This document shows, one piece after another, positions 4,583 through 39,189 of a DNA stretch of 64,000 nucleotides. How positions within the stretch are numbered: the stretch's first letter is position 1; each line of letters begins with the position of its first letter. Origin of the DNA: Elusimicrobiota bacterium (GTDB taxonomy: Bacteria > Elusimicrobiota > Elusimicrobia > UBA1565 > UBA9628). Under the pieces are notes generated by a model that saw nothing but the letters and a program-made list of their open reading frames with translations, did no database searches and had not been told where the DNA came from. The position numbers and the translations under genes are program-made. The stretch covers positions 12,185 through 76,184 of the forward strand of contig JACPFR010000005.1 of assembly GCA_016182905.1 (NCBI GenBank), given 5' to 3'.

Positions 4583-4818
4583 GGAACAGGATGCTATATA
4601 AAACAGCTGTTACACTTCAACGTTTTGTTACATGCTCATCGGCAGCTGTGATTTAAGCCGGCACAAACGCTATACCTTACCCAGCCGCGCTCCTCGACTA
4701 AGTCGCGGTGTATGTAGCCGATCAAGGGCCGGACGGCGGCCTATGTCTGCGTGGACTACGCCTGCGAGCTGCCGACGAGCGACCTGGAGACCTTCAAGGC
4801 CATCCTGGACGGGAAGAG

Positions 4819-8409: not shown

Positions 8410-8531
8410 GCGCGAAAGAATATGTCTTTCCACGCGACGCGTCATGAGGCATTCGCTCTAGAAGCGCGGCAGGCGCGCGGCGAATAAAAATAGGAAGTCT
8501 CGCTTCCTCTCGATCTGCTAAAATTCCCCTC

Positions 8532-9389: not shown

Positions 9390-9787
9390 AGGCCGGCACT
9401 GACCGCGCAGGCCGCTTGAGCGCCGCCTAAAGGGACGCCGGCGACGCCTCCGCCGCGGGGACCTGGAGCGCGCTGAGCAAGCCGGGGCCGAAGCCTCCCT
9501 TGAAGGCCGCCAGCGCCACGGCGAGAAGATGCACGGGCGAGGCGCCCGGCACGGCTTCCGGGGGCAGCCGCGAGATGAAGAGAGCGGCCAGAACCGAGAC
9601 CGCCGCGGCGGCGAGCCATTGCTTCACATCCTCTCCGTTCATAGAACGCAAATATTACATGCCGGGCCGACCGATCGGGAATGGACGGAATGTCAGGGCC
9701 TGATGACGTTCCTGCGACCGCCGCTTTTCCGGAAGGTTCACATCTCCTCCATGGCGCTTCATGAGGCGGCTTCGCTAAAACCGGACC

Positions 9788-17876: not shown

Positions 17877-18909
17877 CGCCGTTCCTCGCTTTCGTCGAGA
17901 ACGGCATGTTCGTCCCGCAGCCCGGGAAGATGCCGAAATGCTTCGTCGTGTCGCCGAAGAAGTCGAAGTGGCGGCGGTAGCGGCTCTTTTCGAGCATCGA
18001 CGCGGTGTTGCCGCACACCGTCATGATCCGCCCGGCCTCGAAGCGGTGATGGCCGTCGAGCTGAAACGCCTGCGGCGCGTCCGCGATCGTCCCTTTATAC
18101 CTCACGGCCTGGCCGTAGTCTTCGCAGGCGGGCTCAAGACCCGTGAGCTTGAACAGCCGGTAGGTCGCCGAGTAAAAGCCGATGTGGCCGGCGCGCTCCC
18201 GGATCGGGCCCTTGTCGAGAGCCAGCGGCCGCGACTCGACGAGCCGCGGGTCGGCGAAGCCCGCGCTCTTGGCGAGAGGAAGAAAATCGCTCCAATACAA
18301 CGCGCCTCCCAGGCATTCTCCGTACAGCACGGGGTCGTTCCTCAATTCCTGAGGTACGCGTCGGTCGGCGTAGACGTCAGAGAAATACATCTCGCCGCCT
18401 TCCTTGAGAACGCGCCGGGCCTGGCGCAGGACAGCCGCCTTGTCGCGCGCGAGGTTGATCACGCAGTTGGACACGACCAGGTCGAACGAGGCGTCCTTGA
18501 GGCCGATCTCATCGAGGCGCGAGATGTCGCCTTTGATGAACTCCACGTTCCCGTAGCCGAACGCCTTCGCGTGATGCGCGCGGTTGCGCTCGGCGACCTC
18601 GAGCTGCTCGTCGGTCATGTCGACGCCGGTCACGCGTCCCGCTCGGCCGACCAGTTGGGAGAGGACATAGCAGTCCCGTCCGGAGCCGGAGCCAAGGTCG
18701 AGGACGCTCAGACCCGTCAGCTCGCTCGGGATGGTCAGGCCGCAGCCGTAGTAGCGGGAGACGACCTCCTCGCTCACCCTCGATAGCGCCGCGCGCACGG
18801 CGCGCGGCAGGTCCGAAGGCGAGCAGCAGGCGTCGGTTTTCAGGTCGGCGCCGCTTTTCAGGGTCTTTCCGTAATAGTCGCGGACTCCGGCTTCGATGTC
18901 GGCGGGCAT
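17863..18909 (-). CDS. arsM: Arsenite S-adenosylmethionine methyltransferase ArsM
   Basis: VLDLGSGSGRDCY SAM motif I. Conserved Cys DACCSP, NCVINL and a C-terminal Cys. Confidence 0.85.
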   Translation of the reverse strand: MPADIEAGVRDYYGKTLKSGADLKTDACCSPSDLPRAVRAALSRVSEEVVSRYYGCGLTIPSELTGLSVLDLGSGSGRDCYVLSQLVGRAGRVTGVDMTDEQLEVAERNRAHHAKAFGYGNVEFIKGDISRLDEIGLKDASFDLVVSNCVINLARDKAAVLRQARRVLKEGGEMYFSDVYADRRVPQELRNDPVLYGECLGGALYWSDFLPLAKSAGFADPRLVESRPLALDKGPIRERAGHIGFYSATYRLFKLTGLEPACEDYGQAVRYKGTIADAPQAFQLDGHHRFEAGRIMTVCGNTASMLEKSRYRRHFDFFGDTTKHFGIFPGCGTNMPFSTKARNGDACC

Positions 18910-18941
18910 AAGTCAAACCTCCATGGAAATATCAGCCGTCA

Positions 18942-19934
18942 TCACAAAAGATGTAGATGCGTTAAAGTCCAGTAGGCCGCCACGCCGATCACTCCGGCGG
19001 TCGGCAAGGTCACGAGCCAGGCCAGCGCGATCTGGCCGACCATGGCCCGGTTCACTCCGGCCGACCCCTTGCGCAGGCCCATGCCCATGATCGCGGAGCT
19101 CGACACATGGGTCGTCGAGACCGGGAAGCCGTGGAGGGCGGTGCCCACGACCATCGCGGTCGTGGCGAGATTGGCCGCGAAGCCCTCCAGATGATCCATC
19201 TTGGCGACCTTGTGCGCGAGGGTGTCGGTGACCGCGAGCCCCAGGATGATCCCGCCCGCCGCGTTGGCGACGGCGAGGACGAGGAAGAACCAGCGCGGCG
19301 CCACCGTCGCGCTGGGATCGAGCACGGCGTAAAAGAAGAAGCCGAGACCGGCGATCTTCGGGGTGTCGTTCAAGCCCCGCGCGAAGCCGCTCGAAATCGC
19401 GCTCGCCCAATGCGCCCAGTGGCAATTAAGACAGTACTGTTCGCGGCAGAGCCAGTTCAATCCGCGGAACAACAGCCAGGCCGTGCCGAACGCGGCGACG
19501 GGCGAAAGCAGCAACGGTAAGGCGACTTTCTTCCACACGCTTCCCCAAAGCACCTGGTCGAAGCCGAAGGCGTACAGGCCGGTCAGGAGCGTGGCGCCCA
19601 CGATGGCGTGCGTGGTCGAGACCGGCATGCCGATACGCGTCGACAGCAGGACCCAGCCGACCGCCCCGGCGAGGATGGCGAGCGCGAAGGTCTGGTTGAG
19701 CTGAACCTGAGGGGAGAGCATTCCCGTGGTGAAGAGCAAGGTCATCTTCACGGCCCAGGCGGAGGCGAGCACAGCGCCGGCCGCGACGGCCAGAGAAGCA
19801 ACGACGACGGCCTTCTTGTAATCCGACTCTCCGCTCCCGACCAAGGTCGCGATCGACTTGGAGATGTCGTTGGCGCCGTTGGCGAAGGCGAGGCCGGCGG
19901 CGGTGGTCAGTCCCACGACGGCGACGATGTTCAT
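18942..19934 (-). CDS. Inorganic phosphate transporter, PiT family
   Basis: GANDISKSIATLVGSG PHO4 signature, present twice. Confidence 0.85.
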   Translation of the reverse strand: MNIVAVVGLTTAAGLAFANGANDISKSIATLVGSGESDYKKAVVVASLAVAAGAVLASAWAVKMTLLFTTGMLSPQVQLNQTFALAILAGAVGWVLLSTRIGMPVSTTHAIVGATLLTGLYAFGFDQVLWGSVWKKVALPLLLSPVAAFGTAWLLFRGLNWLCREQYCLNCHWAHWASAISSGFARGLNDTPKIAGLGFFFYAVLDPSATVAPRWFFLVLAVANAAGGIILGLAVTDTLAHKVAKMDHLEGFAANLATTAMVVGTALHGFPVSTTHVSSSAIMGMGLRKGSAGVNRAMVGQIALAWLVTLPTAGVIGVAAYWTLTHLHLL

Positions 19935-21286
19935 TTGATCTCCACGGTCATTAAGTGAGTCCGTCCGGGCCGCCGTTCGTTACACGCGTTGTAAAGACCT
20001 CGGCCGAGCAGGCCGTAGACCACGGCGTATTCGCCGATCCACAGCCAGCGCCACCACGGCAGGCGAGCCGACGATTCTCTCAGCGCGGGATCGATCGCGA
20101 AATACATGAAGCCGACGATCCAGGCCCAGGCCAAGGCGGCCGGCGAGGGAGTCAGGAGGGCGAACGGCAAGGCCCAGAGCACGTACCAGGGCTGGACCAC
20201 GGGACTGGCAAGGAGGACGGCGAGGATCATCCCGCACAGGTAGCGTACGGCGTCCTCGCCGCAGCGCCGGGCCCATGGCAGGCTGAACGTGATGACGATC
20301 AGTACGAGGAGGAGCCGTCGCAAGGAGGGGGATTCGACGAGAGTCGACAAGGCGGCGTACAGGCTGGGATTAGCCAGCCAGTCGGATGCGAACGCGGCGA
20401 TGCCGCTCTCAGGTACGGCGTGCAGCGCCGCGGCAAGACCGGAAACGACCGGAATCAGGCCGAAGCATGCGACTGAGAGAAAAACCACCGCGTAGCGCGG
20501 GCGCCGAAGGAACAGCCATGGCAGCAGGACGATCGGGACGACTTTCACCAGCGCCGCCGCCGCCCATACCGCGGCGCCGATTCCGCGGCGCCCGGATTCC
20601 CACAGGTCGAGGCCGGCAAGGAGCCCGAGGATCATCAGGGAGTCGAGATGCCCCGCCGCCGAGAACTCGACGAGCACGAGGGGATGCCAGGCGTAGACCG
20701 CGGCCCAAGCGACGGACAAACCGCGGCGGCGCAGAAGCCGCATGAGCAGGACGCAGGCAAGGAGGTCGCAGAGGGAGAAAAATCCCTTTTGGGCTCGCGC
20801 GTCGGCCGTGACGGCGGCGACAATACGGAAAGCCGCCAGGGCCAACGGGGGATAGATCGCGGTCAGGCCCTGATTGTTGATCCGTTCGTCCTGTCCTTGG
20901 CGAAGGAACGCGAGATCCGGAGAAGACGGCGGGAGAAGATAGGGATTGCGTCCCGCGTTGGCGACCCGGCCCTCCCATGAATATCGATAGGCGTCGGTCG
21001 ATGGGGTCGGGGGAACGAGAACGAGCGCAAGACGACAGAAAGCCGCGACGACGAGGATAAGCGCCTTCCGATCGCCCTCGTCCTTCCCAGGATGAGGCTC
21101 ATGCGCAAGCCTTCGCCAGGTCAGCCACGACACGCAGGTCCAGAGGGCCAAAACGCACAGGAACGCCGGAACATGGTCCACCAGCGGAGCCCGGAGGGCC
21201 AACGCGACGGCGCCGAGCGCCGAGGCAAGGCCGGCTCGAAGCAGAATACGGGTCACCAGAGTGAGTCCGCGCCGGCGGAGGAACAT
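19931..21286 (-). CDS. Integral-membrane glycosyltransferase, GT87/DUF2029-like
   Basis: ~10 TM helices. ATGA-coupled to the PiT gene. Confidence 0.6.
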   Translation of the reverse strand: MFLRRRGLTLVTRILLRAGLASALGAVALALRAPLVDHVPAFLCVLALWTCVSWLTWRRLAHEPHPGKDEGDRKALILVVAAFCRLALVLVPPTPSTDAYRYSWEGRVANAGRNPYLLPPSSPDLAFLRQGQDERINNQGLTAIYPPLALAAFRIVAAVTADARAQKGFFSLCDLLACVLLMRLLRRRGLSVAWAAVYAWHPLVLVEFSAAGHLDSLMILGLLAGLDLWESGRRGIGAAVWAAAALVKVVPIVLLPWLFLRRPRYAVVFLSVACFGLIPVVSGLAAALHAVPESGIAAFASDWLANPSLYAALSTLVESPSLRRLLLVLIVITFSLPWARRCGEDAVRYLCGMILAVLLASPVVQPWYVLWALPFALLTPSPAALAWAWIVGFMYFAIDPALRESSARLPWWRWLWIGEYAVVYGLLGRGLYNACNERRPGRTHLMTVEIK

Positions 21287-21307
21287 TACAGAGGTCTGAC
21301 TCCATAC

Positions 21308-22147
21308 CTAAAGCACGCTGGGCGCGATTTCCTCCACCATGTCGCCGATCAGATCAGGATCACTGTCAGGAGCCAACATGCCGGCATCGCCCATCTTTCC
21401 GGTCATCTCCAGCTTGAAGGCATCGCCGGTCTTGCGCAGGCGCGACTCGCCCCCGCAGGCGCGGCAATAAATGCATTCGCCGCCATGCTGGGCGCGACGC
21501 AGCGCGATCGGCGCGCTGCATGAGGGACAGCCTTGCAGCGGAAGTCCCGGCTCGCTGTGTCCGACGATGCAAGCGACCTCCGAAGAACGATCCCATGCCA
21601 GGGCGTGCCGTCCGAATTGAGCGTCGAACTGGCCGCCGAGCTCGTCGCCGATGACGGTCAATGCCTTCGCCATCGGCATTCCCTTTCGATAGGGACGAGC
21701 GCTGGTCATGGCATCGAAGGCGTCGGCGATGCCGACGATGCGCGCGACTTCGGGGATCGCCTCGCCCGCGATGCCGCTCGGATAGCCCTTGCCGTCCGGA
21801 CGCTCGTGATGACCGACCACGGCATCCATCGCCAGACCGGCAAGCGGATGATGCGACAGCAGCCGTCCGCCGACCGTCAGGTGGGTTTTCATGACGGCGT
21901 ATTCAGCATCGGCCAGGCGATCCCGTTTGTTGAGGACCGAATCCGGCACGCCGACCTTGCCGAGGTCGTGCAGGAAGCCGCCGATCTCGCACAGCGCGAC
22001 ATCGCGGGGGGACAACCCGGACTGCCGCGCCAGCAGCTTCGAGAGCTGAGAGACGCGCCACAGGTGTCCTCCGGTATAAGGGTCGCGCGCTTCGACGATC
22101 ATCGCCGAACCCAGCAAGGCATGCAGCAACGATTCTTTTTCCGCCAT
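21308..22147 (-). CDS. HD-GYP phosphodiesterase with C-terminal zinc-ribbon (paralog of 9788..10741)
   Basis: Same motifs as the first copy (HHERPDGKGYP; CPSCS...CRACGG). Stretches of identical DNA with the first copy. Confidence 0.85.
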   Translation of the reverse strand: MAEKESLLHALLGSAMIVEARDPYTGGHLWRVSQLSKLLARQSGLSPRDVALCEIGGFLHDLGKVGVPDSVLNKRDRLADAEYAVMKTHLTVGGRLLSHHPLAGLAMDAVVGHHERPDGKGYPSGIAGEAIPEVARIVGIADAFDAMTSARPYRKGMPMAKALTVIGDELGGQFDAQFGRHALAWDRSSEVACIVGHSEPGLPLQGCPSCSAPIALRRAQHGGECIYCRACGGESRLRKTGDAFKLEMTGKMGDAGMLAPDSDPDLIGDMVEEIAPSVL

Positions 22148-22230
22148 GATACGCCCCCCTGCTCACGGAAGTCTAATCCGGGCGGCCGGGCGCCGGCCAT
22201 AGCGGGCGCGTGAATTAATTTTAACGGCCC

Positions 22231-22262
22231 TTGACTCAATACCCAGGTATTGGGTCTATACT
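22231..22262 (+). promoter_or_regulatory. MerR-type promoter/operator: -35 TTGACT, 20-bp spacer with dyad CAATAC-C-CAG-GTATTG, -10 TATACT
   Basis: Read directly from the sequence upstream of merR1. A long spacer with a palindrome is the MerR-family signature. Confidence 0.7.
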
Positions 22263-22279
22263 GGAAGCAAGGAGGCGCG

Positions 22280-22687
22280 ATGAAAGAATATCTGACGGTC
22301 GGAAAGGTCGCCCGGCAGGCCGGAGTCAACCTGCAGACCGTTCTTTATTACGAGAGGCGGCGCTTGCTGTCGCCGGCCCGGCGCTCCGACTCCGGCTACC
22401 GCTTATACGCGCCGGAAACGGTGCGCGTCATCCGCTTTATTAAGAATGCCCAGGCGTTGGGCTTTACGCTCGAAGAGGTCGCCAAGCTCTTGCGGCTGAG
22501 GGTCAACCATCGCAGCCAATGCGAATCGGTCAAGCGGCAGGCCCGATCGCGGTTGGAGCTGGTGCAGGAGAAGATCGGGGGATTGAGGGCGATGGAAAGG
22601 ACTCTGAAGCGGCTGCTCAAGACTTGCACGGCGCGCGGCACTACGGACTCCTGCCCGATCCTGGAAAGTCTGGAATCAAGGAGATGA
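22280..22687 (+). CDS. merR: Hg(II)-type MerR family transcriptional regulator
   Basis: Start MKEYLTVGKV with AAGGAGG RBS. Cys81/Cys117/Cys126 spacing identical to MerR Hg-binding cysteines. Confidence 0.85.
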   Translation: MKEYLTVGKVARQAGVNLQTVLYYERRRLLSPARRSDSGYRLYAPETVRVIRFIKNAQALGFTLEEVAKLLRLRVNHRSQCESVKRQARSRLELVQEKIGGLRAMERTLKRLLKTCTARGTTDSCPILESLESRR

Positions 22688-22691
22688 TCAT

Positions 22692-23279
22692 ATGGACAAG
22701 AAATTCGTCGGATTGGCGGCGCTGGCTTCGGCCGGACTGGCCTCGGTGTGCTGTCTCGGTCCACTCGTCGTGACGGGCCTGGGGCTGGGAAGCTTGGGTC
22801 TGGCGGCGGGCTTGACCAAGTACAGACCGCTCTTCCTGGCGCTGACCGGCATCATCCTCGCCGTCGCCTTCTACCTCGCCTATCGCAGACGTTCCGTGAC
22901 GTGCGTCGACGGCAGCTGCGAGCTCCGCTCGGGCAGCCGGGCGATGAAGGCCGGCGTGTGGACGTTGGCGGCGCTGGCGGCGGCCATGGCGACTTTCCCA
23001 AGTTGGTCGGGGCGATTCGTCTCAAGCGCTCCGGTCGCCGTCCCGGCGGGGACTCAAGTCCTGTCCCTGAAAGTCACTGGCATGGACTGCGAGGCCTGCA
23101 CCGCGGCGATCAAGCAGTCGGTGGAGAAGGTGCCGGGCGTCCTCTCGGCGCGTATCGACTTCACCGGACAGCGGGCGACGGTCGTTTCCGACGGCAACGC
23201 CGATCCCAGGGCGGTGATTCAAGCCGTGGCGACCGCAGGATACAAGGCCGAATTGATCAACGGAGGCGGTCATGACTAA
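22692..23279 (+). CDS. merT: MerT mercuric transport protein fused to C-terminal HMA (MerP-like) domain
   Basis: TM1 with GLASVCCLGP (MerT CC motif). Second Cys pair CVDGSC. C-terminal GMDCEAC HMA domain. Confidence 0.8.
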   Translation: MDKKFVGLAALASAGLASVCCLGPLVVTGLGLGSLGLAAGLTKYRPLFLALTGIILAVAFYLAYRRRSVTCVDGSCELRSGSRAMKAGVWTLAALAAAMATFPSWSGRFVSSAPVAVPAGTQVLSLKVTGMDCEACTAAIKQSVEKVPGVLSARIDFTGQRATVVSDGNADPRAVIQAVATAGYKAELINGGGHD

Positions 23280-23736
23280 TCCTGACGAGCACGAGGCGTG
23301 CTGCCGTCTTCCGGCCGTCGCCCTTGCCTGTCCCGTCTGCGGCAAGCAAGGCCGAAAGGTGGGGAAAGAAACCTTGGATCAGCACTTAGCTCCCGGGCCG
23401 CGGGCTCTGCTTGGTGATGAAGCCGGCTTCTGTCCGAACCCGGCCTGCGAGGTCGTGTACTTCGACGGTACCGCAACCGTCCGCAAGGGCGAAACGTTGC
23501 ATGCCGTCACGCAGAAGGATCCGGGCGATGAAGTCTTCGTGTGCTACTGCTTCGAACATAAGCGCGGCGACCTGAGGCGCGATCTGGCGGAGAAAGGCAT
23601 GACGGACATTCCGGACCGGGTCAAGCGGGGTGTTAAGGAAGGGCGCTGCGATTGCGCGCGAAAGAACCCGCAGGGAGCCTGCTGCCTGGGCAATATCGTT
23701 GCGGCGATCAACGAGATAAAAGGAAAAAAATCATGA
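23272..23736 (+). CDS. CopZ-N-terminal-domain-like Cys-rich metal-binding protein (zinc-ribbon + putative [2Fe-2S] site)
   Basis: CPVCGK...CPNPACEVVYFD zinc ribbon. C-terminal VCYCFE...GRCDCARKNPQGACC resembles the Archaeoglobus CopZ N-terminal domain. GGAGG RBS. Confidence 0.6.
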   Translation: MTNPDEHEACCRLPAVALACPVCGKQGRKVGKETLDQHLAPGPRALLGDEAGFCPNPACEVVYFDGTATVRKGETLHAVTQKDPGDEVFVCYCFEHKRGDLRRDLAEKGMTDIPDRVKRGVKEGRCDCARKNPQGACCLGNIVAAINEIKGKKS

Positions 23737-24104
23737 AAAGCGCGCTGCTCGCCGTCGGGTTGGCGTTCGCGACGACGGCGGCCGTTGGATCTTCCGTGCT
23801 TGCCGCGAACGTCGCCTCGGACGCCGCGCGGGCGGAGCCGGCCGAACTGTCCGGAGCGGTGCTCGTCCGCGTAAAAGGCATGGACTGCCCCATGTGCGCC
23901 TTCGGCTTCAAGAGGCGGCTCAAGAAACTGCCGGGGGCTGAGGCCGTGCGGCTCGACTATAAGGCAGGCACGGCGCGCATCACGTTTAAGTCCGGCGCAC
24001 GGATCAATCCGGACGATATCCGCAAATCCGTCAAGGACGCCGGATTCGAGGCGATCGAGATCGGCCCGGCCATACCGGCGCAGATCAAAGGAGAAAAACA
24101 ATGA
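23733..24104 (+). CDS. Periplasmic heavy-metal-associated (HMA/MerP-like) protein
   Basis: Start MKSALLAV (ATGA overlap). Signal peptide. GMDCPMC motif. Confidence 0.8.
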   Translation: MKSALLAVGLAFATTAAVGSSVLAANVASDAARAEPAELSGAVLVRVKGMDCPMCAFGFKRRLKKLPGAEAVRLDYKAGTARITFKSGARINPDDIRKSVKDAGFEAIEIGPAIPAQIKGEKQ

Positions 24105-24622
24105 AACGGATACTTGTCGTTCTCGGGGCGGTCGCGGCACTTTGCGCGCTTTCCCCGCTGGCACAGGCGCAAACCTTCCGCAACGTCCTCATCCACGTCA
24201 AGACGTCGCTGTCGCTTGACGACGCGCAGATCTGCGCCGCGCCGAACGTCGCCCTCGCCTCGCTCAAGGCCGGCCACAAGGTGACGATGCTCTTCGACGC
24301 CAGCGCGGTGACCTCCGTCACGAGGGGGTTCGGCTGGAAGCGTAAGTTCTCGAGCACGAGCGCCATGGACCGGGCGAAGCTCCCGGAGCGCGAACGGCGC
24401 AGCCTGTCCGAGCAGCTCGGCGTCCCGCTCGAGCAAGTCCCGCACGACTACGGCGAATACCTGGGCTTCCTGAAGGGCAAGGGCGTCGAGATCTACGGGA
24501 ACAAGACGATGATGCTGCTCTACAACATCGACCCGGCCAAAGCGGATTCCGCCGTCGTGCCCGTCGGCTTGGAAAAAATGGTCGAGCTGTTCAACGCGGC
24601 GGAGCGCACCATCGTATATTGA
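24101..24622 (+). CDS. Exported hypothetical protein, possibly DsrE/YchN-like fold
   Basis: Signal peptide MKRILVVLGAVAALCALSPLAQA. ATGA-coupled. Confidence 0.45.
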   Translation: MKRILVVLGAVAALCALSPLAQAQTFRNVLIHVKTSLSLDDAQICAAPNVALASLKAGHKVTMLFDASAVTSVTRGFGWKRKFSSTSAMDRAKLPERERRSLSEQLGVPLEQVPHDYGEYLGFLKGKGVEIYGNKTMMLLYNIDPAKADSAVVPVGLEKMVELFNAAERTIVY

Positions 24623-24667
24623 CGTAGCCGACATATCGAAGCGCCCGCTGAAATGGTGGAATCGATA

Positions 24668-26440
24668 ATGGCAACGGCGACGAGCGGATGCGGCGTGGAG
24701 AGCCTTCGCGCGCGCAGTCCGGAGGCGCTGACGGCGATGGTCAACGAGCACCTCCCGGCCTTGCTCGCGGGGGCGCTCGCCATTGGGCTGTCTCGGGCCG
24801 ACGCGGAAGAGGCCGTCCAGGAGACCTTCGTGGCCTTCCTCTCCGCGTCGGACCGTTTCCAGGTCCGATCGAGCCTGCGGACCTACTTGTTCGGCATCCT
24901 TTATTATAAGGCGTCCCACTTGCGCGCCAAGGCCCGGCGGGAGGAGGGGCGCGACGACCTTGAGGCCGTGCTCGAGGCGCGCCTCGACGCGGGCGGGATG
25001 TGGCCGCCGCGCGGGCCGGAGGCCGAGATGCTCGGAGCCGAGACTCGGAGCCGGATCAAGGAGGCCGCGGAAAGCCTCTCGACGGCCCAGAGAACGGCGT
25101 TTTTTCTCAAGGAAGTCGAGGGAGCGACTCCGGCGGCTATCTGCGGCGTTTTGAACGTTACACCGACGTATCTTAGAGTGCTGCTCTATCGCGCCCGCAT
25201 GAAACTGCGCTTATGCCTCGGTCCGCGGGTTCTTGGAGCCGTCTTTGCTTTGTGCGCGTTTTCACCGGCGACCGCCGGCGCGCAGGGCTATGGCCTCATC
25301 GCCGCATGGGGGACGAGCGGCTCCGGCCCCGCGCAGTTCCGGGAGCCTATGGGGATCGCCATAGACGGCCAAGGAAACGTCTACGCGGCAGATTCGCGCA
25401 ATCGCCGCGTCCAGAAGTTATCGCCGGACGGCAGGTTCCTCGCGGAGTTCGGCGGGCCGGATGTGTTAAAAAAGCCGGTGGACACAGCGGTCGGTCCCGA
25501 GGGGACGCTTTATGTCTGCGACTATGAAGCGGACCGCGTCGAGGTTTTTTCCCGGGATGGCGAGCGCCTTTACGGCTGGGGAGAGCCGGGAGAGGGGAAC
25601 GGCCAATTCCGTTCTCCGGCCGGTATCGCGGCGGACAGGACCGGCAACGTTTACGTGGCCGACTTCTACAATCACCGCATCCAGGTTTTCGACTCCAAAG
25701 GCGGATGGCTCAAGTCCATCGGCAAGAAAGGGCGCGGGAAAGGAGAATTCACTTATCCCACGGATCTGGATTTCGACGACTCGGGCAATCTGGTCGTAGC
25801 CGACGCCTACAACCATCGAATCCAGAAGATCTCGCCGGACGGACGGTCCCTGGAAATATGGGGCTCCGCCTGGAAGCGCTTCTTCTCACGCGGCGCTTTT
25901 CGCGTGCCCAGCGGCGTCGCGGTGGACGCTCGCGGCGACATCCACGTCGCCGACTCGGCCAATAAGCGCGTCGTTTTGCTGGGAGCCAAGGGAGACTTTA
26001 AGGGCGAATGGAGACCGGCGGACGACAGGCGTCCCGACGTCTATTCCCCGACCCATATCGCCGCCGGATCGGATGGACGCATCTTTGCGGCCGACACCGC
26101 CAATGACCGCATACTGGTCCTGGGTCTTGGAGCCTCCGAGGTCGCCGGCGAGGGCCGGGAAGCTCGGGAGCCTCCTGCCGCCGAGCATGTTTCCGGGGAC
26201 GTGCTGGTGCGGATCGAAGGAATGGCCTGCCCATTCTGCGCCTACGGCATCGAGAAACACTTAGGCCGCCTGGCCGGCGTGCGTTCCGCCCGCGTGAACC
26301 TGGGCCAGGGGACGGCGATACTGTATCTCGAGCCGGGTAAGACCGTTTCCTTCGACGATGTCCGCAAGGCCGTGGAGAAGGCCGGGTTCAAGGCCGCGGA
26401 ACTCAAGGGAATGCCGCCCGTCCGTAAGGAGCACCCATGA
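24668..26440 (+). CDS. ECF sigma-70 factor fused in frame to TM segment, NHL-repeat beta-propeller and C-terminal HMA domain
   Basis: N-terminal 190 aa are ~75% identical to the ECF sigma at 33723. No stop after region 4; the ORF continues through MKLRLCLGPRVLGAVFALCAFSPATAGA into NHL repeats and ends with GMACPFCAYG. Confidence 0.6.
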   Translation: MATATSGCGVESLRARSPEALTAMVNEHLPALLAGALAIGLSRADAEEAVQETFVAFLSASDRFQVRSSLRTYLFGILYYKASHLRAKARREEGRDDLEAVLEARLDAGGMWPPRGPEAEMLGAETRSRIKEAAESLSTAQRTAFFLKEVEGATPAAICGVLNVTPTYLRVLLYRARMKLRLCLGPRVLGAVFALCAFSPATAGAQGYGLIAAWGTSGSGPAQFREPMGIAIDGQGNVYAADSRNRRVQKLSPDGRFLAEFGGPDVLKKPVDTAVGPEGTLYVCDYEADRVEVFSRDGERLYGWGEPGEGNGQFRSPAGIAADRTGNVYVADFYNHRIQVFDSKGGWLKSIGKKGRGKGEFTYPTDLDFDDSGNLVVADAYNHRIQKISPDGRSLEIWGSAWKRFFSRGAFRVPSGVAVDARGDIHVADSANKRVVLLGAKGDFKGEWRPADDRRPDVYSPTHIAAGSDGRIFAADTANDRILVLGLGASEVAGEGREAREPPAAEHVSGDVLVRIEGMACPFCAYGIEKHLGRLAGVRSARVNLGQGTAILYLEPGKTVSFDDVRKAVEKAGFKAAELKGMPPVRKEHP

Positions 26441-27330
26441 AAACGGCGCGGATTCTGCTCTCCCTATCCTTGCTAGCCTCCCACATCCCGCCCCTTGAGG
26501 CCGCTCCCATCAGCTTCAACACCGCCCTTCCCGTGCATGAGGGAGGACTCCTCTTTCGCGGGCTGGGAGTTTGGATGAACATGCATGACGACCCCTCTCC
26601 CATGGGTCGGGAAATGGATGTCGCGGCGGTTGCCTCCGTGCTGGTTTACGGGGCCGGCTCCAAGCTGGCGCTGATGGGCGTATTCCCGTACATGGACAAA
26701 AGACTTGCGATCAAGTCGACCGGCGTCGTCCGGCGAGCTTCCGGGCTCGGAGACATCTTGACCGTCGGCCGATACGAGATCTTTGCGCGCAGCGGCCCCG
26801 GACAGACCACCCGCGGAGCGGTCCTCGCCGGGGTCAAGTGGCCGAGCGGCAGAAACGCCGAAACCGACGCCCTCGGGGTCCTGCCGCCCTCCGTGCAGCT
26901 TGGGTCCGGTTCCTACGATCCCATCCTGGGCACCGTGTGGACCGGCCAGTGGCTCGCCTTTCAAGTGGATACGGACGTCTCCTATCGGAGAAACACGAAG
27001 GCCGATGACTTCAAGTTCGGCGATGCCCTGGAGCAGAATATTTCCGTTCAGTATCGCCTTTGGCCCAGGGTGTTGGAGGCGGAGGGCCTGCCCAGCTACC
27101 TCTACGGAGTCTTGGAAGCCAACAACATCTACTCGGCGAAGAACGAGGCGGGCGGCGTCACGGACGGGGACTCAGGCGGATACCAGTTGTTCCTGACGCC
27201 CGGTCTGCAATGGGTCGCCAAAAGAGCCGTGGTCGAAGTCGCGGCGCAGTTGCCGGTCGTGCAGAGCCTCAACGGGACCGCTCTCAGGACCGACTACCGC
27301 CTGTTAGGCGGCTTTCGTCTCTGGTTTTGA
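26437..27330 (+). CDS. Outer-membrane beta-barrel protein (MetA-pathway/transporter-like)
   Basis: Signal peptide. Alternating beta-strand pattern. C-terminal ...GGFRLWF aromatic terminus. Confidence 0.65.
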   Translation: MKTARILLSLSLLASHIPPLEAAPISFNTALPVHEGGLLFRGLGVWMNMHDDPSPMGREMDVAAVASVLVYGAGSKLALMGVFPYMDKRLAIKSTGVVRRASGLGDILTVGRYEIFARSGPGQTTRGAVLAGVKWPSGRNAETDALGVLPPSVQLGSGSYDPILGTVWTGQWLAFQVDTDVSYRRNTKADDFKFGDALEQNISVQYRLWPRVLEAEGLPSYLYGVLEANNIYSAKNEAGGVTDGDSGGYQLFLTPGLQWVAKRAVVEVAAQLPVVQSLNGTALRTDYRLLGGFRLWF

Positions 27331-33622: not shown

Positions 33623-33722
33623 GCGACCGCGGGAAGGGGCGGCGTCCGCGCCGATGGGCGCCGCCCCGCGGGCCGGATGTCGGGATCGAGCGACTTTGGA
33701 AAAGGAATGGTAGAATCCGCGC

Positions 33723-34307
33723 ATGGCAACGACACCGGGCCGATCGAGCGTTGAGGACCTCCGCGCTCGCAAGCCGGAGGCGCTGACGGCCATGGTGAAT
33801 GAGAATCTCCCGACTTTGCTCGCCGGGGCGCTCGCCATCGGGTTGTCGCGCGCCGACGCGGAAGAGGTCGTCCAGGAGACTTTCGTCGCCTTCCTTTCGG
33901 GCCTGGATCGTTTCGAGGGGCGCTCGAGCCTGCGCACCTACCTGTTCGGCATCCTCTACCACAAAGCGTCCAACCTGCGCGCCAAGGCGCGGCGCGAGGA
34001 GGGGAGCGACGACATCGAGGCCGTCGTCGCCGCGCGTTTTGATGAGGCCGGAATGTGGTCTCGTCCGCCGCGCGGCCCGGAGGCCGCGGCGCTCGACGCC
34101 GAGACCCGGAGCTGGGTCGAGAAGTGCGCGGAGGGCCTCCCGGACGCGCAGCGGGCGGCCTTTTTCCTCAAAGAGGTCGAGGGCGAGACCTCGGAATCGG
34201 TCTGTAACGTTTTGGGCGTGAACCCGACCAACTTGCGAGTGATGCTCCATCGAGCCCGTCTGAAGCTGCGGGAATGCCTGGAGCGGAATTGGGAACAAGG
34301 CCGATGA
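33723..34307 (+). CDS. ECF sigma-70 factor
   Basis: Regions 2 and 4 (FVAFLSGLDRF...; NVLGVNPTNLRVMLHRARLKLRECL). Confidence 0.85.
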   Translation: MATTPGRSSVEDLRARKPEALTAMVNENLPTLLAGALAIGLSRADAEEVVQETFVAFLSGLDRFEGRSSLRTYLFGILYHKASNLRAKARREEGSDDIEAVVAARFDEAGMWSRPPRGPEAAALDAETRSWVEKCAEGLPDAQRAAFFLKEVEGETSESVCNVLGVNPTNLRVMLHRARLKLRECLERNWEQGR

Positions 34308-34564
34308 TGAAGCTCATGATGGCGTTCATGCCGAACTGCCGCGAGGTCGCCAAGACCTTATGCGGCGACGGCTTGGCGGCCGAGCCCTGGCATCGACGGC
34401 TGCTGATCCGCGTCCACCTGTCTCAGTGCGAGTTCTGCGCCCGCTTCGCCCGTCAGATGGATCGCATCTGCGAGGCTTTGAAGGAGGCTTGGTCCGAGCC
34501 TCAGGGCGGGGACGTCGAGGCGTTCAAGCGCCGCGTCATCGACCAACTGGGCCGCCGGCTGTAA
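34304..34564 (+). CDS. Soluble ZAS-type (RsrA-like) anti-sigma factor
   Basis: ATGA-coupled to the sigma gene. HLSQCEFC = HxxxCxxC ZAS motif, plus upstream Cys. No TM segment. Confidence 0.7.
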   Translation: MMKLMMAFMPNCREVAKTLCGDGLAAEPWHRRLLIRVHLSQCEFCARFARQMDRICEALKEAWSEPQGGDVEAFKRRVIDQLGRRL

Positions 34565-34593
34565 CGATCCCGCGTCCGGCGGGACTCACCTCT

Positions 34594-35532
34594 GTGGATA
34601 TCCGCTTCGCCGTGACGGCCGCGCTTTCGATGGCAGCCGTGTCCTGGGCCGAGCATGCGCCGCTCGACCCCTTCGCGGCTTTCCTGCCGCGCGGCGTCCG
34701 GGTCTCGGTGCCGCGCGAGGAGATCCGCGGCGGCGGCCCGCCAGTCGATGGGATCCCGGCGCTGGTCCGGCCGCGGAAGGCCTCCGTCGAGGAGTCCGAC
34801 CGCGCTCTTAAGGCCGACGACGCCGTGCTCGGCCTGGTCGTGAACGACGAGGCCGTCGCCTACCCGATCCGCCTGCTCGACTGGCACGAGCTGGTCGACG
34901 ACGAGGTGGGCGGCGTCCCGGTCGCCGTGACCTACTGCCCGCTCTGCCGCAGCGGCATCGTCTTCGACCGCCGGGTCGCGGGAGGCGTCCTGGAGTTCGG
35001 CGTGTCGGGCCTCCTCTACAACAGCGATCTCGTGATGTACGACCGGGGAACGCGCAGCCTCTGGTCTCAGATCATGGCCGAGGCGATCGCCGGCGGATCG
35101 ACGGGGACCAAGCTCGCGCGCCTGCCCGCGCGCCGGACGAGTTGGGCTCGCTGGAAGGCGGCGCGTCCGGACACTCGGACGGTCCTCTTCGACACGGGGC
35201 ACGCGCGGGACTACGGCAAGGATCCCTACGCGGGCTACGAAAAATCTCCGGAGCTCTATTTCCCCGTCGGTCACGAGGACTCCCGGCTTCCTCGAAAGAC
35301 GGTCGTCTTCGGCGTCTCCCTGCCCGAAGGGGCGGCGGCCGCGCCCGTCTCCGCGCTCGGCGGCGAGGGCGTGCGCCTCCGGATCGGGAAACGGCTGATC
35401 GTCATGCGCGACGACGGCGGGGCGCGCGCCTTCGACGAGGAGGGACGGGAGATCGCGGGCCTCGAGGCCTACTGGTTCGCGTGGGCCGCCTTTCATCCCC
35501 GGACTTCGCTGGCCGGCGCGGAGAAGCGGTGA
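34594..35532 (+). CDS. DUF3179 family protein (secreted)
   Basis: VAVTYCPLCRSGIVFDRRV and SGLLYNSDLVMYDRGTRSLWSQ are DUF3179 hallmarks. Proposed GTG start gives signal peptide VDIRFAVTAALSMAAVSWA; the start position is uncertain. Confidence 0.65.
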   Translation: MDIRFAVTAALSMAAVSWAEHAPLDPFAAFLPRGVRVSVPREEIRGGGPPVDGIPALVRPRKASVEESDRALKADDAVLGLVVNDEAVAYPIRLLDWHELVDDEVGGVPVAVTYCPLCRSGIVFDRRVAGGVLEFGVSGLLYNSDLVMYDRGTRSLWSQIMAEAIAGGSTGTKLARLPARRTSWARWKAARPDTRTVLFDTGHARDYGKDPYAGYEKSPELYFPVGHEDSRLPRKTVVFGVSLPEGAAAAPVSALGGEGVRLRIGKRLIVMRDDGGARAFDEEGREIAGLEAYWFAWAAFHPRTSLAGAEKR

Positions 35533-35762
35533 ACGGGGAGCTCCGCGAGGCGGCGGCCTATGCGGCGCGTCCCGCCGTCCTGCGACGGAGCGCGGCGATC
35601 GCGCTTTTCGTGGGCGTCGTCTTGTCGGCGGCGAACCAGGGCGACGTCGTGCTGCGCGGGCCGTGGACGGCGCGATTGTGCGCTAAAATCGCGTTCAATC
35701 TTCTCGTGCCCTTTGTCGTCTCATCCGCGAGCGCCGCGGCCAACAGGGAAAGACGCCGTTGA
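35529..35762 (+). CDS. Putative small 2-TM membrane protein
   Basis: GTGA overlap with the DUF3179 stop. Fills the gap before the TTG-start redoxin gene. Weak. Confidence 0.3.
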   Translation: MNGELREAAAYAARPAVLRRSAAIALFVGVVLSAANQGDVVLRGPWTARLCAKIAFNLLVPFVVSSASAAANRERRR

Positions 35763-36262
35763 AGATCCCGAACCTGCTCTGGAAGCTCCTCTGGCCCTTG
35801 CGGACGAGGCTCCATCCAGGCGCGGACATCGGCGGATGCTTTCCCGACTTCACCTTGCGCGACACTTTCGGGCGGGAGCATTCGCTCTACGCCGGCGGGA
35901 GGGAGAAGCACACGGTGCTGTGGCTCACGAACTTGTGCGGGGACTGCCGGGCGAAGATTCCCCTTCTGGAGGAAGTCAGGTCCGAGTCAGGCGGCCGTGT
36001 CCGCGTCCTGGCCGTCAGCCTCCTGGATCTCGACGACCCTTTGCCCATGACGGTATCGCTGGTCTGCGGTTTCCCGATACTTCTGGACCCCGACGACGTC
36101 GTCGCGCGCCGGCTCGGCCAAACGCATCCGCCGGGGGCCTGTCCCTTGCGCAATATCTACATCGTCGACGGAGCCGGAACCATCCGCTTCAAGCACCACT
36201 TGTCGGCGGTAAAGCCGGAGGAATTCCGCGCCGTTTGGAGAAAGTTGGGCGCGGCCCCGTAA
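35759..36262 (+). CDS. Redoxin/thioredoxin-fold thiol-disulfide oxidoreductase (TlpA-like)
   Basis: NLCGDC CxxC motif. Apparent TTG start overlapping the upstream stop. Confidence 0.6.
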   Translation: MKIPNLLWKLLWPLRTRLHPGADIGGCFPDFTLRDTFGREHSLYAGGREKHTVLWLTNLCGDCRAKIPLLEEVRSESGGRVRVLAVSLLDLDDPLPMTVSLVCGFPILLDPDDVVARRLGQTHPPGACPLRNIYIVDGAGTIRFKHHLSAVKPEEFRAVWRKLGAAP

Positions 36263-36304
36263 CAAAGCCGGCGCGAGACGGACTTACTATCAGGAGCATA
36301 TGAC

Positions 36305-37051
36305 ATGAACCGCTCGATCCTCATCGTTTCCCTGATCCTGTCGACGGGCGAAGTCTCTCGGGCCGCGGAGCCCGACGGAGCGCGAGCGCGATTGAACGCG
36401 ACGCTCGCGGCGCGGGTGCTCGAGGGCCGCGTCGACTACGCCGGCCTCAAGAAGGACTCGTCCGGCCTGGACGCCTGGCTCGCCGCCGCCGCCGCGGCCG
36501 ACGAGGACGAATTCAAGGGCCGGCCGCGAGATCAGCGGCTGGCCTTCCTGATCAACCTGTACAACGCCGCGACCCTGCGCCTCATACTGGACCGCTATCC
36601 GATCGCCTCCATCCGGGACATCGGACCGGCATGGGACCCGAACAAGGCCTGGAAGCTCCCGGCGGTGAAGGCGTTCGGGCGGACCGTCACGCTCAACCAG
36701 CTCGAGCACGAGATGATCCGCCCGGTCTATAACGAGCCGCGCGTCCATTTCGCGCTCGTTTGCGCGGCCAAGGGCTGCCCGCCCCTGCGCTCCGAGTCCT
36801 ACGACGGGACGCGGCTCGACGCGCAGCTCGACGATCAGGCCCGGACCTTCCTGTCTCAGAGGGCCAAGAACGACGCCAGCAAGGCGGGGGAGACGGCCTA
36901 TCTTTCCCCGATCTTCAAATGGTACATGAAGGACTTCGGCGGCTCGAAGAAAGCCGTCCTGAGATACGTGAAGAAGTGGCTGCCGGTCGAGGAAGGCTGG
37001 GCGGTCGATTGGACGGCGTACGATTGGGCGCTCAACGAGGATAAGAAATGA
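36305..37051 (+). CDS. DUF547 family protein
   Basis: Signal peptide. LINLYNA and HFALVCAAKGCPPL DUF547 motifs. Confidence 0.8.
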   Translation: MNRSILIVSLILSTGEVSRAAEPDGARARLNATLAARVLEGRVDYAGLKKDSSGLDAWLAAAAAADEDEFKGRPRDQRLAFLINLYNAATLRLILDRYPIASIRDIGPAWDPNKAWKLPAVKAFGRTVTLNQLEHEMIRPVYNEPRVHFALVCAAKGCPPLRSESYDGTRLDAQLDDQARTFLSQRAKNDASKAGETAYLSPIFKWYMKDFGGSKKAVLRYVKKWLPVEEGWAVDWTAYDWALNEDKK

Positions 37052-37671
37052 GGGAGTTCCTGGCGTCGGCGCTGGCGTGGACCGCGGCCGCCGGTCCCCT
37101 GGGACAGGCGGCTTTCGTGGGGCTTTACGTCCTGGCCACCGTGGCCTTCCTGCCCGGCTCGGTGTTGACCTTGGGGGCGGGCGCGGCCTTCGGCCTTTGG
37201 AAGGGATTCATTTTGGTCTCGATCGGCTCGACCGTGGGGGCGAGCGCCGCGTTCCTGGTGGGGCGCTACCTGCTGCGGGACTGGGTTTCCCGTAAGCTGG
37301 AGAACGTCCCCGCGTTCGGCGCGATCGCAGGAGCCGTGGGCCAGGAGGGCTGGAAGGTCGTGCTTCTGACGCGCCTGTCGCCCGTGCTGCCGTTCAACCT
37401 GCTCAACTACGCCTACGGCCTGACCACGGTGGGCTTCGGGGAATACGTCCTGGCTTCTTGGCTCGGGATGATCCCGGGCACCTTCTTGTACGTCTACCTC
37501 GGCGCCGTCGCCGGCGAAGCCGCGCGGGGTGGCTCTCGCGCGCGCACGCCCGCCGAGTGGGCGCTGTACGCGGGGGGGCTGGCCGCCACCGCCGTCGCCG
37601 CCTGGCTGGTGGGCCGCACCGCCAAGCGCGCGCTGTCCGCCAAGACGGCGCCGAACGCAAAGGAGAAATGA
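37048..37671 (+). CDS. TVP38/TMEM64 (DedA/SNARE-associated) family membrane protein
   Basis: TM-rich. ATGA-coupled. Classic partner of mercuric-reductase-like oxidoreductases. Confidence 0.8.
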   Translation: MREFLASALAWTAAAGPLGQAAFVGLYVLATVAFLPGSVLTLGAGAAFGLWKGFILVSIGSTVGASAAFLVGRYLLRDWVSRKLENVPAFGAIAGAVGQEGWKVVLLTRLSPVLPFNLLNYAYGLTTVGFGEYVLASWLGMIPGTFLYVYLGAVAGEAARGGSRARTPAEWALYAGGLAATAVAAWLVGRTAKRALSAKTAPNAKEK

Positions 37672-39189
37672 ATGTCGAACGACCTGATCTCGCCCATGGA
37701 CGAGCACAACCGCAAGCTTCTGTCCAACGTCCATCCGCCGGACTGGGTCAACCCCGAGCCCGCGGGGCGCTACAATCTCGTCGTCATCGGAGGCGGGACG
37801 GCCGGGCTCGTCACCGCCGTCGGCGCGGCGGGCCTGGGCGCCAAGGTCGCCCTGATCGAGAAGCACCTGATGGGCGGCGACTGCCTCAACGTCGGGTGCG
37901 TGCCGTCGAAGGCCCTGATCTCCGCTTCGCGCGCCGCCGCCCGGGTCCGGAGCGCGGGAGAGTTCGGCGTCAAGGTTCCGGACGGCGTGACGGTGGATTT
38001 CCCGGCGGTGATGGAGCGCCTGCGTCGTCTGCGCGCGGACATCAGCAGGAACGACTCGGCGGCGCGCTTCAAGAGTCTCGGGGTCGACGTGTTCGTCGGC
38101 CAGGGCCGGTTCACGGGCTCGGACAGCGTCGAGGTCGGCGGCAAGACCTTGCGCTTCGCCAAAGCCGTGATCGCCACGGGCGCGCGCGCAGTGACCTTGC
38201 CCATCCCCGGTCTCAAGGAGTCCGGGGCGCTGACCAACGAGACGGTGTTCAACCTCACCGAACTGCCCAAGCGCCTGCTCGTCATCGGCGCCGGCCCCAT
38301 CGGCGTGGAGATGGCTCAGGCCTTCGCGCGCCTGGGCTCCCAGGTGACTTTGTTCGAGGCCCTGCACGGCATCCTCAACCGGGAGGACCAGGACGCCGCC
38401 GAGCTCGTGCGCAAGTCCCTCGACCGCGACAAGGTCGAGTTCCTGTGCTGCGTCGACATCGAGCGAGTCGAGCGCTCCGGCGCCGTGAGCACGGCGCATT
38501 TTAAGAGCAAACACGGGCCTTCCGGCACGAAGGAATTCGACGCGGTCCTCGTCGGCGTAGGGCGCGCGCCCAACGTCGAAGGCCTCGAGCTCGACGCGGT
38601 CGGCGTGGCCTTCGACAAGACCGGCGTCAAGGTCGACGATCAGCTGCGCACGACGAACCCGAACATCTACGCCGCGGGCGACATCTGCCTGGCGCCGAAG
38701 TTCACCCACACCGCCGATTTCGCGGCGCGCATCGTGATCCAGAACGCGCTGTTCATGGGGCGCAAGCGCTTCAGCGCGCTGACCATCCCCTGGTGCACCT
38801 ACACCGATCCCGAGATCGCCCACGTCGGCCTGTACGAGAAGGAGGCGCTGGCCAGGGGGCTCAAGGTCCGGACCTTCGTCCAGAAGCTCGACGAGGTGGA
38901 CCGCGCCATCCTCGACGGCGAATCCGAGGGGTTCGTGAAAGTCCATGTCGAGGACGGGACCGATAAGATCCTGGGCGCCACCATCGTCGCCTCTCACGCG
39001 GGCGACATGATCGGCGAGATCTCGGTGGCGATGAACAACGGCGTCGGGCTTTCCGGCATCGGGGCGACCATCCACCCGTACCCGACCCAGGCCGAGGCCG
39101 TGCGCAAGCTCGGCGACGCCTACAACCGCACGCGCCTGACGCCTTTCGCCAAGTCCGCGCTCGGCGCCTGGCTGCGATGGAGCCGGTAG
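37672..39189 (+). CDS. FAD-dependent pyridine nucleotide-disulfide oxidoreductase (mercuric reductase-like / dihydrolipoamide dehydrogenase family; not MerA)
   Basis: GGGTAG FAD motif. Redox-active CLNVGCVPSK. NAD motif GAGPIGVE. C-terminal dimerisation domain. Lacks the MerA C-terminal CC pair and the NmerA domain. Confidence 0.85.
   Translation: MSNDLISPMDEHNRKLLSNVHPPDWVNPEPAGRYNLVVIGGGTAGLVTAVGAAGLGAKVALIEKHLMGGDCLNVGCVPSKALISASRAAARVRSAGEFGVKVPDGVTVDFPAVMERLRRLRADISRNDSAARFKSLGVDVFVGQGRFTGSDSVEVGGKTLRFAKAVIATGARAVTLPIPGLKESGALTNETVFNLTELPKRLLVIGAGPIGVEMAQAFARLGSQVTLFEALHGILNREDQDAAELVRKSLDRDKVEFLCCVDIERVERSGAVSTAHFKSKHGPSGTKEFDAVLVGVGRAPNVEGLELDAVGVAFDKTGVKVDDQLRTTNPNIYAAGDICLAPKFTHTADFAARIVIQNALFMGRKRFSALTIPWCTYTDPEIAHVGLYEKEALARGLKVRTFVQKLDEVDRAILDGESEGFVKVHVEDGTDKILGATIVASHAGDMIGEISVAMNNGVGLSGIGATIHPYPTQAEAVRKLGDAYNRTRLTPFAKSALGAWLRWSR

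Follow-up and report, generated by a model that had tools for sequence, protein, structure and literature searches.

Is a protein that begins as a sigma factor and ends as a metal-binding domain a one-component regulator, or the outcome of two genes running together? The question is raised by an open reading frame of 590 codons in a 64,000-nucleotide stretch of an Elusimicrobiota bacterium (assembly GCA_016182905.1, contig JACPFR010000005.1, positions 12,185 to 76,184; hereafter the window, in whose numbering coordinates are given). Its product joins an extracytoplasmic function (ECF) sigma factor to a short hydrophobic segment, an NHL beta-propeller, and a heavy-metal-associated (HMA) domain. 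A sequence-only reading of the window had offered either a membrane-tethered, metal-sensing sigma factor with its anti-sigma function in cis or two proteins whose separating stop codon had been lost or mis-sequenced. We favor, with modest confidence, a lineage-specific in-frame fusion in which the NHL-HMA cargo would still be exported and cleaved and the sigma factor would be a doubtful passenger.

The Fused Frame and Its Domains

The frame is open without interruption from 24653 to 26440 on the forward strand in the list of open reading frames; an alternative ATG at 24653 would yield 595 aa, and residues below are numbered on the 590-aa version (NCBI start, 24668) unless the 595-aa numbering is stated. 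All Pfam matches lie above their gathering thresholds, including Sigma70_r2 (35.9 bits; cutoff 24), Sigma70_r4_2 (32.4 bits; cutoff 25.7), and NHL in five stretches (E 8e-43). NCBIfam TIGR02937 (sigma70-ECF) matches residues 24–189 at 62.8 bits (cutoff 42.9), and regions 2 and 4 are present without region 3 or region 1, the composition of an ECF (group 4) sigma-70 factor. In an AlphaFold2 model built from an alignment of both halves, residues 208–487 form 24 strands arranged as six four-stranded blades (pLDDT >90), and the HMA domain, whose GMACPFC metal-binding motif places the CxxC cysteines at 26228..26239, is likewise well predicted. Foldseek matches of the propeller include the NHL domains of TRIM71, Thin, and TRIM2 and the extracellular NHL sensor domain of Mycobacterium tuberculosis PknD (1rwi). 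The initial description of a single frame running from ECF sigma through a hydrophobic segment into about six NHL repeats and a GMACPFC HMA domain is borne out by these domain matches, by the modeled folds, and by the identical second assembly described below.

This architecture occurs once. Among ~5.8 billion proteins searched with the whole protein as query, only the fused protein itself, from an Elusimicrobia metagenome-assembled genome (MAG), combines these parts (labels of the form P0001 denote proteins from the database searches and L001 related loci or contigs). Its nearest ~20 NHL-HMA homologues are 397–450 aa long and 53–85% identical, each with its own N-terminal signal peptide. Over its whole mature part the fused protein is 59–85% identical to the secreted NHL-HMA proteins of Elusimicrobia (P0002–P0024); its close orthologues among them all stand alone at about 405 aa. 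These proteins share a signal peptide, a six-bladed propeller, a C-terminal GMACPFC HMA domain, and a neighboring Phenol_MetA_deg channel gene. With the sigma part as query, all 85 relatives are 171–229 aa long and at most 74% identical. No sigma is fused to an NHL gene in 80 more distant loci, where a few lie adjacent.

A Second Assembly Reproduces the Fusion

An independent Logan assembly of run SRR12113419 (L083) spans 8155 bp and matches window positions 18872..27026 with 0 mismatches. A search for shared 13-mers or longer found no repeat of at least 13 bases at the junction, and a repeat-driven mis-join was therefore rejected. Because the two assemblies are identical and the join carries no repeat, mis-sequencing or mis-assembly of the fusion is unlikely. 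One could still suppose that a chimeric contig joined two separate genes, or that a stop or an indel was missed: The fusion is a singleton from a MAG, and both assemblies probably derive from one short-read data set. Yet the join deletes ~10 sigma codons and the start codon of the cargo without disturbing the frame, more than a single base error could accomplish, and synteny on both flanks is coherent; together with the 8155 identical bases and the absence of a repeat, this leaves an artefact the least probable of the explanations we consider, at a very slight chance. Of the earlier suggestion that the sigma stop was lost or mis-sequenced, the first half stands, as an evolutionary loss of the stop and the last 8–10 codons. 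Orthologous loci, to which the sequence-only reading had looked for a separating stop, carry NHL-HMA as a separate gene in every relative found, but the fusion in the window is itself real.

The Junction Replaces the Sigma Tail with a Predicted Signal Peptide

Homology to the sigma family ends at YRARMKLRLCL184 (L184, 25217..25219). The family continues with the tail RARLKLRECLERNWEQGR (LExxWExxR), in which E is 100% and W 99% conserved; the fused copy departs from the family in missing this tail, ~10 aa, and in having GPR and the signal peptide in its place. Within ~6 codons of RLCL184, homology to the NHL-HMA proteins resumes, conserved ATAGA c-region included. The sequence after GPR, VLGAVFALCAF-SPATAGA/QGYGLIAAWG (the slash marks predicted cleavage here and below), aligns with the pre-proteins of the orthologues through the hydrophobic region, the c-region (ATAGA, ATARA), and the mature N terminus. 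Reading the sequence places a predicted signal-peptidase I site between A205 and Q206 (25282/25283). No residual homology to the lost sigma tail and no microhomology is visible at the join, and a search for an internal promoter or terminator around it gave nothing above shuffled background.

The hydrophobic segment had been described as a signal peptide or transmembrane helix. Only the first description holds: As judged from its sequence, the segment is the NHL-HMA protein's own signal peptide, predicted to be cleavable, rather than a 20-residue membrane anchor, because its core has 11 residues, AlphaFold2 models a helix over 186–196 only, AGA/Q follows, and ATAGA is common to the free orthologues. 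Five Arg/Lys residues precede the core, and the predicted topology is therefore N terminus in and C terminus out. A lipoprotein signal was rejected, since FALC does not fit a lipobox (G, A, or S required at −1). A cis-acting anti-sigma domain was rejected as well: Neither Pfam nor NCBIfam finds one, and the three residues (GPR) between the end of region 4.2 and the hydrophobic segment leave no space for it.

The sequence-only reading also placed a possible start of the NHL-HMA protein at an internal Met. An in-frame ATG is indeed there (M178), replacing a Leu (CTG) conserved in at least 91% of the sigma family, and initiation at 25199 is possible. No Shine-Dalgarno sequence lies upstream of this ATG, however; such sequences are present at the sigma start, merR, the channel gene, and the orthologous NHL-HMA genes.

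Comparison with Hybrid and One-Component Sigma Factors

The fused protein belongs with ECF sigma factors whose C-terminal extension comprises a membrane segment and an extracytoplasmic part. IutY of Pseudomonas putida (ECF243) and the ECF48/52/53 hybrids, such as SCO4117, are sigma/anti-sigma hybrids, and activation of IutY by proteolysis (Prc, RseP) has been shown (PMC8999054, PMC5411451, PMC5826349). Like them, the fused protein is one polypeptide with an N-terminal ECF sigma, one membrane-spanning segment, an extracytoplasmic C-terminal part, and no separate anti-sigma gene. Unlike them, it lacks three features: an anti-sigma domain, which in the hybrids is FecR-like or ZAS and lies between sigma 4 and the membrane, where only three residues are found here; a stable membrane anchor, ~20 residues in the hybrids against a predicted cleavable signal peptide here; and a conserved fused architecture, the hybrids forming families whereas the present fusion is known from one genome only. 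Metal-responsive ECF sigmas of the CorE type (ECF238, formerly ECF44; PMC8999054) share with it a metal-binding C-terminal extension instead of an anti-sigma. In CorE that extension is a short cytoplasmic Cys-rich tail contacting the sigma domains, whereas the HMA domain of the fused protein would lie 330 residues off, across the membrane.

Four proteins from JGI, NCBI, and ENA metagenomes (P0009, P0031, P0053, and P0067; 860–1000 aa, sigma parts 59–66% identical) also carry an ECF sigma and NHL repeats on a single chain, with a membrane segment between them. This family has a conserved 35-aa linker, a 19-aa transmembrane segment, 7–10 or more NHL repeats, and a FlgD_ig/Por_Secre_tail (T9SS-type) end, and may constitute genuine one-component ECFs whose ectodomain is made of NHL repeats. 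It differs from the fused protein in its unrelated sigma family, its linker and transmembrane segment, its T9SS-type tail, and its lack of an HMA domain.

These comparisons bear on the proposal that the fusion yields a stable type-II membrane protein in which metal sensed by the periplasmic NHL-HMA part controls a tethered sigma, as in IutY or ECF52. The predicted topology suits such a sensor, the HMA domain binds metal, NHL propellers act as extracytoplasmic sensor domains (PknD, 1rwi), and the conserved P0009 family shows an ECF, transmembrane, and NHL arrangement in metagenomes. The sensor would nonetheless have neither anti-sigma domain nor linker; its 11-residue core would be followed by a conserved signal-peptidase site; its orthologues are free periplasmic proteins; its architecture is not conserved; and the P0009 family differs in its 35-aa linker and 19-aa transmembrane segment. 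We regard the metal-sensing model as highly improbable. The form of it put forward in the sequence-only reading, with anti-sigma function in cis, is not supported, given the GPR gap, the complete NHL-HMA pre-protein that follows it, and the confinement of the fusion to a single genome.

The Sigma Half Evolves under Relaxed Constraint

The reference state of the sigma family (P0121–P0189) is a stand-alone paralogue in the same window, followed as claimed by a separate ZAS anti-sigma gene (Table 1). The two sigmas had been put at ~75% identity; the close relationship stands, and the measured value is 73% (135/186). Anti-sigma genes of this family, 84–86 aa with HxxxCxxC, also lie directly after the sigmas in L084 and L086. 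None lies 3′ of the fused copy, as had been noted: The next genes are the Phenol_MetA_deg channel and a convergent TonB-dependent receptor. Judged by sequence and neighborhood, the fused copy is an orphan, diverged member of a ZAS-regulated ECF sigma family that adjoins a mer-like operon.

Selection on the sigma was partitioned over three taxa with the paralogue and the orthologues from L086 and L084. Synonymous divergence (dS) on the fused branch is ~0.35, the same synonymous length as on the other branches, while nonsynonymous divergence (dN) is 0.147, compared with 0.018 on the paralogue branch and 0.04 on the orthologues. The corresponding ratios (omega, dN/dS) are ~0.42 for the fused sigma, ~0.05 for the paralogue, and ~0.12 for the orthologues, so that the protein sequence of the fused sigma is evolving 4–8 times faster than its relatives. 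At 85 columns of at least 90% conservation it deviates at 10, as against 0–5 in close family members; the substitutions include E65Q, G66V, C133A, and N168Y, and the sites hit include a Cys that is universally conserved, the Gly in the FxGxS turn, and, in the recognition helix of region 4.2, two residues. The fused sigma is under relaxed constraint. The mature NHL-HMA part on the window branch has an omega of 0.12–0.16, and since this equals that of the orthologues, the cargo is normally constrained and still functional.

The tree of the sigma family is star-like, with a terminal branch of 0.179 for the fused sigma against a median of 0.046. Fused sigma and paralogue are separated by a dS of 0.71, and the NHL-HMA part and its L001 orthologue by 0.38; the fused sigma is therefore an old or imported copy and not a fresh duplicate. 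Recent in-genome duplication of the paralogue was ruled out on the same grounds, a dS as large as between species and the star-like tree.

The surroundings of the paralogue offer some side observations. A conserved extended −10-like motif, TGnTAGAAT, precedes the sigma ATG by 5–6 nt in the paralogue (33708..33716, TGGTAGAAT) and in the L086 and L084 orthologues, which points to a promoter of the housekeeping type and to a leaderless mRNA. The fused copy (24654..24662, TGGTGGAAT) has G instead of the key A at hexamer position 2, a change that weakens the −10 and creates a GGTGGA Shine-Dalgarno-like sequence. The paralogue's anti-sigma has no membrane segment and would be a cytoplasmic, ZAS-type protein. 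Genes downstream of the sigma/anti-sigma pair (window 34304..39189; L086 10585..14374) include those for DUF3179 or AhpC/DUF547 and VTT proteins, a FAD-dependent disulfide oxidoreductase of 505 aa (NF004991), and patatin, and the neighborhood looks like a thiol or oxidative-stress regulon adjoining the metal operon.

The Sigma Half Occupies a Variable Slot of a mer-Like Operon

The fused frame belongs to a conserved operon seen at window 22231..27330 and at loci L001, L084, and L087–L090. Five related loci with a stand-alone NHL-HMA gene share the order MerR, MerT/HMA, zf_CopZ, a variable slot, NHL-HMA, and Phenol_MetA_deg, and in every relative the channel gene follows NHL-HMA and overlaps its stop codon. 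In the window the slot holds the exported HMA protein, the 173-aa protein, and the sigma; in L084 a 170-aa homologue of the 173-aa protein directly abuts NHL-HMA. This synteny supports, at the level of gene order, insertion of a sigma upstream of NHL-HMA. The sigma family habitually adjoins the operon: In L086 a sigma/anti-sigma pair comes directly after MerR, MerT, zf_CopZ, and HMA, and in L084 such a pair lies a few genes downstream. The MerR-type promoter at its head probably serves the whole operon (Table 1). As a separate observation, the slot appears to be a hot spot of gene turnover; at L001, the closest orthologous locus, it holds a 90-aa CxxC protein at 9703..9975, glutaredoxin-like by eye.

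The operon is only mer-like and not a canonical mercury-resistance (mer) operon, because matches to the mer models fall below their equivalog cutoffs and MerA is absent from it. The NCBIfam MerR model scores 120 bits (cutoff 150.85), with ZntR, CueR, and CadR almost as high, and MerTP scores 87 bits (cutoff 180). A FAD oxidoreductase at 37672..39189 scores 382 against the MerA cutoff of 454 and fits NF004991 instead.

Table 1. Features of the fused gene, its operon, and the paralogous sigma locus in the window
Feature	Position	Strand	Remarks
MerR-type promoter	22231..22261	+	TTGACT, 19-bp spacer with dyad CAATAC/GTATTG, CTATAC; upstream of merR
MerR-family regulator	22280..22687	+	
MerT/HMA fusion	22692..23279	+	
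zf_CopZ metallochaperone	23272..23736	+	2Fe-2S metallochaperone-like
Exported HMA protein	23733..24104	+	
173-aa protein	24101..24622	+	N-terminal signal peptide; no Pfam or NCBIfam match
Fused open reading frame	24668..26440	+	590 aa; NCBI protein MBI2384660.1 (P0001)
ECF sigma region 2	24737..24940	+	Pfam Sigma70_r2, residues 29–96 (595-aa numbering)
ECF sigma region 4.2	25052..25207	+	Pfam Sigma70_r4_2, residues 134–185 (595-aa numbering)
Internal in-frame ATG (M178)	25199..25201	+	Replaces conserved Leu codon of the sigma family
Fusion junction	25220..25237	+	Sigma homology over; homology to 5′ end of orthologous NHL-HMA genes starts
Signal-peptide core (predicted)	25229..25282	+	Hydrophobic V188–F198 (11 residues), c-region SPATAGA
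Six-bladed NHL beta-propeller	25289..26128	+	Pfam NHL, AlphaFold2, and fold search
HMA domain	26207..26392	+	Pfam HMA, residues 519–580 (595-aa numbering)
Phenol_MetA_deg-type outer-membrane channel	26437..27330	+	297 aa; overlaps stop of fused frame (ATGA)
Stand-alone paralogous sigma	33723..34307	+	Reference state of the family
ZAS anti-sigma of paralogue	34304..34564	+	86 aa; overlaps sigma stop (ATGA); HLSQCEFC; NCBIfam anti-sigma family, E 4e-7

An Analogous Sigma–Omp85 Fusion Is Maintained in Sister Genomes

A second fusion of the same kind is known from database entries and is not described in the papers surveyed. In a sister MAG, L086 carries at 4415..6202 a 595-aa protein (MBI5246244.1) in which a different ECF sigma is fused to a POTRA-Omp85 outer-membrane protein, and its junction, VMVYRARMRLIRHLG-QAAAVVALLSAVAVPGAFA/AP, is identical in type to that in the window. 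A 3.1-Mb contig (L094) encodes a fused orthologue at 8001..9776, 67% identical to that of L086; in both, the junction reads YRARMRLIRHLG, a hydrophobic region, and AFA/A. The two sigma halves are 53% identical, with a dN of 0.41, saturated dS, and an omega of at most 0.16. Because omega is this low across saturated dS, the frame and its sigma have been maintained. Two other lineages retain, in front of the same chimeric signal peptide, only a decayed remnant of region 4 (L091, about 5880..6000; L092, about 380..631); in L091 region 2 is gone and the frame contains a stop. In a search of 1.84 billion representatives, the fusion occurred within a single 50%-identity cluster, itself represented by an unfused protein.

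The two fusions come from the same clade, and in both the last helix of region 4.2 is joined, with no linker between, to the hydrophobic region and AxA site of a signal peptide whose exported owner stands alone in other genomes—for Omp85 including the window itself, where the orthologue at about 40116..41381 is unfused. They differ in ECF family (E 1e-12 between the sigmas) and cargo; moreover, the sigma–Omp85 fusion is found in at least two diverged genomes under purifying selection, whereas that of the window is a singleton under relaxed constraint.

An Omp85 barrel cannot stay tethered to the inner membrane, and cleavage or a separate start is therefore obligatory in the sigma–Omp85 protein. 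This consideration favors a rival account in which the window's fusion is one functional polypeptide, a pro-sigma that its cargo's signal peptide keeps at the membrane. Signal peptidase would cut off NHL-HMA, a site-2 or signal-peptide protease would then clear the stub, and the outcome would be one active sigma per exported cargo under MerR control, with no need for an anti-sigma. The same junction type in L086 and L094, kept at an omega of at most 0.16, speaks for it, as do the intact reading frame of the fused sigma and its omega below 1. In RsiV/sigma-V and RsiP/sigma-P, signal peptidase is the site-1 protease and a site-2 protease then frees the sigma (PMC4183432, PMC8844934, PMC6066255), and RseP removes remnant signal peptides (PMC8144685). 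Like RsiV and RsiP, the fused protein would be a type-II membrane protein that loses its extracytoplasmic part to signal peptidase; in those systems, however, a separate anti-sigma is cleaved in a ligand-gated manner, whereas here the sigma itself would carry the signal peptide and nothing suggests gating. Against export coupling, the window fusion is a singleton, its sigma lacks the conserved tail and evolves at the accelerated rate given above, and decay of the Omp85-fusion sigma in two other lineages marks that fusion as dispensable. We consider the account unlikely for the window, although less so than metal sensing.

By analogy between the two fusions, these Elusimicrobia might harbor a small, undescribed class of export-coupled ECF sigmas with NHL-HMA or POTRA-Omp85 as cargo, an extension to which we assign a slightly lower likelihood again. 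Members would have neither linker nor anti-sigma domain, the sigma being fused directly to the cleavable Sec signal peptide of the cargo. The sigma would be membrane-tethered at birth and freed after processing of the cargo, and would report on export or envelope assembly. In a literature survey of incomplete coverage, no ECF sigma was described with NHL, HMA, or Omp85 as its fusion partner or with a signal peptide attached directly, and NHL, propellers, and Elusimicrobia go unmentioned in the main text of the principal ECF reclassification paper.

A Probably Exported Cargo with a Doubtful Sigma Passenger

The account we favor is that of a fusion with a surviving cargo. Uniqueness, origin, junction anatomy, and selection come from the data. 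Sequence comparisons show that a sigma copy landed directly upstream of NHL-HMA, lost its stop and last 8–10 codons, and was joined to the start of the NHL-HMA signal peptide. The operon would be transcribed from the MerR-type promoter and translation would start at 24668. The sigma domain would stay in the cytoplasm, retained by the five Arg/Lys residues preceding the hydrophobic core, and residues 178–205 would act as a Sec signal peptide. Cleavage by signal peptidase I after AGA205 would release a 385-aa NHL-HMA protein into the periplasm, where, beside the outer-membrane channel, it would do the same metal-handling job as its stand-alone orthologues; a start at the internal Met178 may provide a minor route. 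The sigma would be left as a ~22-kDa by-product with a hydrophobic C-terminal stub and neither an anti-sigma partner nor a cis-acting domain. Because it is under relaxed constraint, this by-product is probably weakly active or heading to decay, and the sigma remnants upstream of Omp85 in L091 and L092 are an analogous precedent for decay.

Several points weigh against this account. We infer from sequence only that the cargo is exported and cleaved, and likewise what becomes of the sigma. The sigma frame is intact across 184 codons, 75 of its 85 conserved columns are kept, and omega is below 1, so that the fused sigma may still be working. Maintenance of sigma–Omp85 in two diverged genomes shows that such fusions can be maintained. 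The model of the fused sigma 4 has a pLDDT of 31–58 against ~90 in the stand-alone paralogue, but the alignment contexts differ, and as something other than a clean control it is a weak indication about the integrity of the sigma.

Implications

If the fusion is of this ordinary kind, the locus would be a clean natural example of a sigma gene fusing with a gene for a secreted protein: The basic last helix of region 4.2 would stand in for the n-region of the signal peptide, and the cargo would survive while the sigma drifts. The case is also a warning that an annotation such as "sigma-70 family" on a 590-aa MAG protein should not be taken to denote a designed one-component regulator. The operon of MerR, MerT/HMA, zf_CopZ, NHL-HMA, and outer-membrane channel represents an uncharacterised envelope metal-handling system of groundwater Elusimicrobia. 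Were the export-coupled account true instead, control of an ECF sigma through Sec, signal peptidase, and a site-2 protease, free of any anti-sigma, would amount to a regulatory logic that is new. Most of the interest of the case comes from the conserved sigma–Omp85 precedent, which keeps that account open.

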